Shown here: one piece after another, positions 46,824 through 46,871 of the stretch
How positions within the stretch are numbered: the first letter of the stretch is position 1
Layout: each line of letters begins with the position of its first letter
NCBI RefSeq assembly: GCF_001677475.2
Contig: NZ_CP015229.1
Strand: one strand, 5' to 3'
DNA length: 64,000 bases
From: Escherichia coli
GTDB lineage: Bacteria; Pseudomonadota; Gammaproteobacteria; Enterobacterales; Enterobacteriaceae
Notes under the pieces: generated by a model
Told to the model about the DNA's origin: nothing
What the model saw: only the letters and a program-made list of their open reading frames with translations
The model's database searches: none
Translations under genes and position numbers: made by a program

Positions 46824-46871
46824 CAACCAACGCCCCTTTCCGTAAGGCGAGGGGCGAATTAAGGAGAGGCG

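Follow-up and report, generated by a model that had tools for sequence, protein, structure and literature searches.

The 64-kb window examined here (the whole stretch of DNA analysed, 64,000 nucleotides) is a piece of E. coli chromosome carrying the end of rrnB, tufB, rpoBC, thi genes, rrnE, yjaB, metA, the aceBAK operon, arpA, iclR and metH. Within the operon, aceA (isocitrate lyase) occupies positions 45519 to 46823 of the plus strand, with its extent taken from the open reading frame (ORF) list and its start from the RefSeq annotation of near-identical genomes (1305 nt), while aceK, which encodes the isocitrate dehydrogenase kinase/phosphatase of 578 aa, extends from 46872 to 48608 on the same strand according to the ORF list and the annotation of matching genomes. 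Since the aceA stop codon TAA lies at 46821-46823 and the aceK ATG begins at 46872, the spacer between them, CAACCAACGCCCCTTTCCGTAAGGCGAGGGGCGAATTAAGGAGAGGCG (46824-46871, plus strand), comprises 48 nt, the length already given for it in a preliminary description of this DNA. The sequence and a comparison of alleles identify it as a haplotype free of REP elements. A stem-loop (46831-46856), a short AAUU linker (46857-46860) and the Shine-Dalgarno (SD) region of aceK (46861-46869) follow one another on the plus strand of the spacer, and an AceK-int sRNA region with an aceK-internal intrinsic terminator, located by a terminator scan and comparison with K-12, is present further downstream on this strand at 47155-47239.

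An arpA ORF of 728 aa (minus strand, 48577-50763), to which PGAP gives the name 'T3SS effector EspL4', is convergent with aceK and overlaps the aceK 3' end (48608) by 32 nt. This gene is absent in E. ruysiae (metagenomic locus L098), E. albertii, E. whittamii and Escherichia sp. MOD1-EC7003, in all of which AceK has 574 aa as opposed to 578 aa. Just 262 nt (41828-42089) are present between the rrnE 5S rRNA (41712-41827) and yjaB (42090-42533), so that yjaA, which is present in K-12 and serves as a Clermont phylotyping marker, is absent from the window, which is arpA-positive and yjaA-negative. Among 5,426 complete E. coli genomes, the closest match has an identity of 98.9% over 1-25 kb but just 97.7% over 30-54 kb, a region that extends from zraS to metH with aceBAK and arpA in it and that looks mosaic or hypervariable. 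Around the spacer, a 701-nt piece shares 99.6% identity with an O158:H23 strain.

Folding of the spacer RNA bore out the hairpin claimed for 46831-46856 in the preliminary description and found it to be larger than described there. Residues C46831 to U46838 pair with G46849 to G46856 (8 bp), followed by a 1x1 mismatch (U46839/C46848) and two apical pairs (C46840-C46841 with G46846-G46847) that enclose a GUAA tetraloop of the GNRA type (46842-46845). In isolation the hairpin has a minimum free energy of -19.0 kcal/mol and represents 89% of the ensemble, and it stays the dominant structure when folded in a 71-nt context. Dinucleotide shuffles averaged -9.0 kcal/mol (z = -3.73), and none of 200 was as stable. 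The exact hairpin occurs once in the window, even with up to three mismatches allowed, and once per carrier genome, which led us to reject a dispersed repeat family as its source. The short allele is nearly invariant, and with respect to covariation only two natural variants were seen and inspected: C46836U, which keeps the stem through a U-G pair (-16.3 kcal/mol), and a double change, G46846A plus C48U, in the apical part of the stem. Rfam returned no match in the interval 43000-50000 at E ≤ 1 except a chance snoRNA match elsewhere, and none at the gathering threshold.

With 10 bp in total, eight of them G-C pairs, the stem has the GC-rich character of an intrinsic terminator. If the hairpin attenuated or partly terminated transcription between the two genes, it would have parallels in other genera, with a terminator-like spacer in Shimwellia and a U-rich run after the hairpin in Serratia and Yersinia. 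In the window, however, the stem is followed by AAUUAAGG (AAUUAAGGAG), which contains no U-tract, and the hairpin itself is therefore not a terminator; the terminator scan likewise reported no plus-strand site here, although the same scan detected the terminator inside aceK. We consider termination at the spacer highly improbable. The reverse complement of the hairpin (46849-46831, minus strand, tail TTGGTTGTTA) gave a weak terminator-like match, which is probably meaningless as no gene converges at this position.

The terminator within aceK is made up of a hairpin at 47210-47231 followed by CTTTTTAT. It belongs to a region (47155-47239) for which Rfam has no family and which is 100% identical to aceK +284..+368 of K-12, the source of the ~85-nt sRNA AceK-int (K-12 4,218,879-4,218,963; PMC8175672). 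The 5' end of AceK-int is an RNase E site (PMC8175672; PMC11347164), and its 3' end is conserved across species, with a signal in Klebsiella and Salmonella that resembles a long aceA 3' UTR (PMC10687069). Premature termination within aceK has been reported, together with a product ratio of 0.3:1:0.003 (PMC5435950). The documented transcriptional downshift is thus the terminator inside aceK, with its 3' end at aceK +368, and not the spacer (PMC8175672, PMC10687069, PMC5435950).

The spacer stem starts 7 nt after the aceA stop codon, and the median stop-to-stem distance in the short spacers of other genera is 4 nt, so the hairpin might be thought to act on aceA instead, by stalling terminating ribosomes and triggering trans-translation. 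REPs within 15 nt of a stop codon reportedly have this effect. The geometry that we infer places the stem base ~13 nt from the first P-site nucleotide when the stop codon is in the A site, and little or no unwinding would then be needed to terminate. An effect of this kind on aceA, which would also have to be reconciled with AceA being made at a higher level than the other operon products (PMC5435950), appears very unlikely.

The SD of aceK, AAGGAG (46861-46866, extended as GGAGAGG to 46869), is positioned 5 nt before the AUG and 4 nt past the stem; the gap is the AAUU linker, previously counted as 3 nt, which is predicted to be unpaired and is a candidate RNase E or standby site. As the SD lies 4 nt outside the helix, the element is not of the SD-sequestering or RNA thermometer kind. 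The best SD:anti-SD duplex of the short allele has a free energy of -9.2 kcal/mol versus -6.1 to -6.4 kcal/mol for REP-type alleles. According to thermodynamic predictions, which ignore co-transcriptional folding and ribosome traffic from aceA, the SD of the short allele is unpaired with a probability of 0.56-0.70 versus 0.03-0.38 in REP-type alleles (four sequence contexts), and the AUG with a probability of 0.33-0.61 versus 0.00-0.15 in the K-12, 280-nt and 85-nt alleles. The CU-rich 5' arm of the hairpin (CCUUUCC) can pair with the SD (GGAGAGG; duplex -10.6 kcal/mol), a pairing that appears only with the 3' arm blocked, at -14.6 versus -27.6 kcal/mol for the spacer.

These values bear on one of the routes offered in the preliminary description (mRNA processing, stability or translation initiation), in which the hairpin acts on the ribosome-binding site and thereby keeps AceK low. 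Ending only 4 nt before the SD, the hairpin could lower aceK initiation directly: the 30S footprint reaches upstream of the SD, and initiation is known to suffer when a stable structure leaves a very short standby site. In K-12, aceK is expressed about 300-fold below aceA (PMC5435950), the low AceK:AceA ratio that such a block would set. However, neither the SD nor the AUG is part of the helix, and both are predicted to be mostly single-stranded; the SD is canonical in sequence and spacing and pairs more strongly with the anti-SD than that of any REP-type allele examined; the hairpin ties up a CU-rich tract that could pair with the SD if left free; and as far as transcription is concerned, the downshift is located within aceK. 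The proposed action on the ribosome-binding site is accordingly not supported, given an SD predicted to be 56-70% unpaired and its stronger anti-SD pairing, and we regard it as quite unlikely. With a stronger and more open SD, the short allele should initiate aceK at least as well as K-12 per transcript, with the proviso that a standby-site penalty from the 4-nt single strand between hairpin and SD could, in this model, offset the stronger SD.

Alignment with the corresponding region of a K-12-lineage genome showed a spacer of 182 nt with three REP units (GTAGGCCGGATAAGGCGTTCACGCCGCATCCGGC units), in agreement with the longer REP-containing spacer attributed to K-12 in the preliminary description, and K-12 does not have the identical 48-nt spacer. 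Other complete E. coli genomes possess spacers of 85, 124, 183, 215 and 280 nt with one to five REPs. All of these REP-type alleles have common non-REP edges, GCAAC... after the aceA stop and ...TTCTCTGCTCCTGATGAGGGCGCTAA (ending ...AATTCTCTGCTCCTGATGAGGGCGCTAA) before the ATG, as well as a weaker SD, GAGGG, and their initiation region varies at 4 of 28 nt within E. coli. A small palindrome, GCAAC-N7-GTTGC, is situated between the aceA stop and the first REP of REP-type alleles (e.g. 525-541 in locus L001). The 48 nt of the window could not be aligned with the 85-, 124-, 182-, 183-, 215- or 280-nt alleles, the flanks being 95-99% identical, and the ~35-nt REP consensus (GCCGGATG...CTTATCCGGCCTAC and variants) is absent from the window spacer according to the alignment with these six REP-bearing alleles. 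The only stretches that the short and REP-type spacers could have in common are CAACC at the left margin and an AATT that follows the palindrome. A K-12 spacer from which the REPs had been excised was considered as the origin of the short form and rejected, as both REP-type flanks (GCAAC..., ...TTCTCTGCTCCTGATGAGGGCGCTAA) are absent. The short spacer, lacking the REP-type edges, is instead a separate haplotype that is not homologous to the REP type and has a ribosome-binding site of its own. The earlier suggestion of a structure different from the K-12 REP arrangement holds, there being no homology over the spacer. Two non-homologous aceA-aceK spacer haplotypes segregate in Escherichia, and the short one is very probably a real REP-free alternative allele.

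The 48-nt spacer is present in 717 of the 5,426 complete E. coli genomes (13.2%), identical in 706 of them and 1-2 nt off in 11, and is always single-copy and chromosomal, with none on plasmids among the 717 carriers. About 4,700 genomes (~87%) have REP-type spacers. A rough estimate from an evenly spaced sample of the genome ranking has the 280-nt form as the commonest allele, in about half of genomes, and the 182/183-nt form of K-12 in ~15%. Carriers of the short allele include UM146 (adherent-invasive), BEN2908 (avian-pathogenic) and an APEC O2:K1:H5 strain, all three ST95, phylogroup B2, and also arpA-positive strains like the window. The allele is found on several flank haplotypes whose SNP states also occur in long-allele genomes, and is accompanied by at least five different AceK protein accessions. 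One of these, WP_001137237.1, occurs with the 48-nt spacer in MS15052 (L007) and with a 215-nt REP spacer in strain 9 and PBP8 (L005 and L010), which indicates recombination breakpoints at or very near the spacer. A literature search for papers on polymorphism of the aceA-aceK spacer, or on this allele or dimorphism, found none.

A scan of metagenomes for the hairpin returned eight matches, all between aceA and aceK in Escherichia. One of these loci, L098, is ~92% identical to the window over 14 kb, lacks arpA, shows 90-95% identity to every complete E. coli genome and encodes an AceK that is Escherichia ruysiae by NCBI name. Its spacer nevertheless agrees with that of the window at 47 of 48 positions, although its flanks are ~6% diverged. 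The short allele thus occurs on varied flanks as well as in E. ruysiae, and the dimorphism is therefore one that two species share and that recombination has reshuffled. Spacers of the REP type with K-12-type edges are present in E. albertii, E. whittamii and Escherichia sp. MOD1-EC7003. No evidence was obtained for a recent large introgression, as the 520-nt flanks show no excess divergence and their SNPs are shared with long alleles; ruysiae-like flanks were found in none of the 5,426 complete E. coli genomes (best 95.3% over 1 kb). A donor outside Escherichia was likewise rejected, in that none of the 80 species representatives listed has the same spacer and the metagenome matches are all from Escherichia. 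The nearest spacer among the listed species, at ~67% (z ~8), is the aceK-proximal 50 nt of that of Huaxiibacter chinensis, and the window spacer has CGCCCCTTT in common with a copy of the CCCTCTCCC element from Enterobacter asburiae. Purifying selection could account for the near-invariance of the short allele, as could a recent spread on very short recombination tracts.

The comparison across the order was based on the aceA-aceK spacers of the 80 listed Enterobacterales species representatives, among which are neither Salmonella nor E. fergusonii. A hairpin of -11.7 kcal/mol or lower (median -25) was present in 76 of the 76 spacers analysed, window included, so a hairpin at this position is a recurrent feature of the operon. 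For 77% of the 71 spacers of 30-130 nt, the fold was more stable than those of dinucleotide shuffles (p ≤ 0.05), and the median z of the 71 was -2.75. The hairpin sequences are unrelated between genera. E. coli-type REPs characterise Escherichia, and REP pairs Citrobacter and some Klebsiella and Kluyvera; a CCCTCTCCC...GGGAGAGGG palindrome is found in Enterobacter, Lelliottia, Klebsiella, Raoultella, Leclercia, Kosakonia and others. Pectobacterium, Brenneria and Dickeya (Pectobacteriaceae) have GGCCAGC...GCTGGCC with a core conserved across genera, in which changes are mostly from G-C to G-U and not decisive as covariation; Serratia and Yersinia have GAGCCTGCTTATGCAGGCTC followed by a U-rich run, again conserved across genera, and Shimwellia a canonical terminator, GGCCCCACCCGG-TTTA-CCGGGTGGGGC then TTTTTGTTG. 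For the locus L023, whose contig bears the label Edwardsiella ictaluri ATCC 33202, the encoded AceK shares 89% identity with that of E. coli, far more than expected for Edwardsiella, and the spacer was extracted as 0 nt; contamination, mislabelling or an extraction artefact are possible causes.

The length distribution of the spacers has a sharp mode at 48 nt, with nine cases if that of the window is counted, and at 49 nt, with four, and the sequences involved are unrelated. Besides the window, a length of exactly 48 nt was found in L028, L030, L032, L043, L072, L074, L077 and L082, which are loci of Trabulsiella, Lelliottia, Klebsiella, Enterobacter, Winslowiella, Pectobacterium and Brenneria. 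A common layout consists of the stop codon, 4-8 nt, the hairpin, ~15-18 nt with the SD, and the ATG, to which the window conforms with 7 + 26 + 15 nt. Since 48-49 nt is the most common length, the short allele has the common architecture, into which the long REP arrays do not fit. The near-universal presence of a stem-loop in these spacers argues that its position matters for operon expression. On the other hand, the CCCTCTCCC palindrome (CCTCTCC-N-GGAGAGG type) also occurs in the aceK-iclR spacer of nine loci (L027, L033, L036, L042, L044, L046, L049, L054 and L072), at about 4224-4330, and its presence downstream of aceK shows it to be a dispersed REP-like family in Enterobacter, Klebsiella and relatives. 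As many hairpins of other genera are dispersed repeats, their apparent universality may in part reflect an insertion preference rather than a selected function.

Such considerations lend some plausibility to the idea that the hairpin is a neutral relic, either a decayed palindromic repeat or a tolerated GC-rich palindrome, and the dimorphism neutral recombinational switching. The spacers of other genera are largely filled by dispersed repeat families, most E. coli carry a completely different spacer at no evident cost, and the similarity to the end of the Huaxiibacter chinensis spacer and to the Enterobacter asburiae element could be read as traces of such a repeat. Against this, 706 of the 717 carriers have the 48 nt unchanged and E. 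ruysiae differs at a single position, whereas the coding flanks vary by up to 5% within the short-allele set and by ~6% between E. coli and E. ruysiae; REP-type initiation regions, for their part, vary normally. The hairpins are moreover kept where the sequence looks unique, as in Pectobacteriaceae and in Serratia and Yersinia, and the 48-49-nt mode recurs across unrelated sequences. We therefore think neutrality unlikely. Quite improbable, too, is the most far-reaching reading. In it, the spacer hairpin would be an order-wide Enterobacterales module, conserved in structure and in its 48-nt architecture but not in sequence, and Escherichia would keep REP arrays with a weak, sequestered initiation region and a single GNRA hairpin with a strong, open one as a long-lived dimorphism across species, the near-invariance of the short allele being due to selection. 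AceK dosage would then differ heritably between the two alleles, and with it the way in which cells behave at the isocitrate branch point, for instance when growing on acetate or when ExPEC lineages of the ST95 type switch between glucose and acetate.

The explanation that we prefer combines an alternative REP-free haplotype with a hairpin that serves as a stabiliser of the aceBA message, and we assign this statement as a whole a probability of roughly 0.45; the stabiliser mechanism by itself is a tentative model, to which we give somewhat less than an even chance. Under this model, most aceBAK transcripts would end at the aceK-internal terminator or be cut by RNase E at the 5' end of AceK-int, after which 3'-to-5' exonucleases would trim back and stall at the spacer hairpin, so that a stable aceBA message would stay and the aceK sequence would be lost. 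The hairpin may in this way contribute to the excess of AceA over AceK through mRNA stability and not through blocking of the ribosome-binding site. It would at the same time lock the CU-rich, anti-SD-like tract in its 5' arm and insulate the ribosome-binding site, with the proposed consequence that the aceK SD stays open, and per surviving transcript the short allele would probably yield more AceK than K-12. In line with what a stabiliser would look like, a stable stem-loop lies just downstream of the abundant cistron, 7 nt past the aceA stop, and REP stem-loops stabilise upstream mRNA against 3'-5' exonucleases. Against it, 87% of E. coli lack this hairpin and have REPs in its place, which may be a functional substitute, the REP elements doing the same exonuclease-barrier job in K-12, or may mean that the spacer is permissive for palindromes. 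Deletion of the REPs in K-12 reportedly had little effect on the aceA:aceK ratio, and if so the stabiliser model is weakened.

Textbooks use the aceBAK operon to illustrate how far expression can differ between the genes of one operon (~300-fold), and nearly all mechanistic work on it concerns the K-12 REP-type spacer. With about one in eight E. coli genomes carrying an unrelated spacer and an exposed canonical SD, conclusions derived from K-12, and models of AceK dosage, may not transfer to them. The short allele also provides a natural allele swap with regard to the contribution of intercistronic stem-loops to expression ratios. A modest general point on operon design is that a hairpin is kept in every Enterobacterales species sampled, in a recurrent 48-49-nt layout. 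Should the hairpin be neutral, the locus would be just one more switched intergenic region.

In terms of known systems, the element is of an ordinary kind, an intercistronic stem-loop in a switched intergenic region. Switched intergenic regions, or regulatory switching, are known within bacterial species. As in these, orthologous flanks at the present locus are joined to two unrelated spacers in one species and have been recombined onto different haplotypes; the differences are that the switch is inside an operon (intercistronic) and not at a promoter, and that the short haplotype extends to another species, E. ruysiae. A likeness in mechanism is offered by the REPs between malE and malF, with a stable hairpin just 3' of an abundant cistron, a distal gene expressed at a far lower level and a proposed barrier to 3'-5' exonucleases. 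In contrast to them, the window hairpin is a unique sequence with a GNRA loop and not a REP, and its function here is a predicted one. The aceK-internal terminator and AceK-int are part of the same logic by which aceBAK expression is partitioned, but constitute a separate element ~340 nt downstream of the spacer and the documented site of premature termination. The K-12 REP/BIME spacer occupies the same operon position and likewise places stable GC-rich stem-loops between the abundant aceA and the poorly expressed aceK. The K-12-type spacer varies by strain in REP copy number and in length, from 85 to 280 nt in E. coli and 542 nt in E. albertii, whereas the window hairpin is single-copy and not a member of a dispersed family. 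The two also differ at the start of aceK, with an AAGGAG predicted to be open in the window and, in the K-12 type, a GAGGG predicted to be largely paired and a sequestered AUG.
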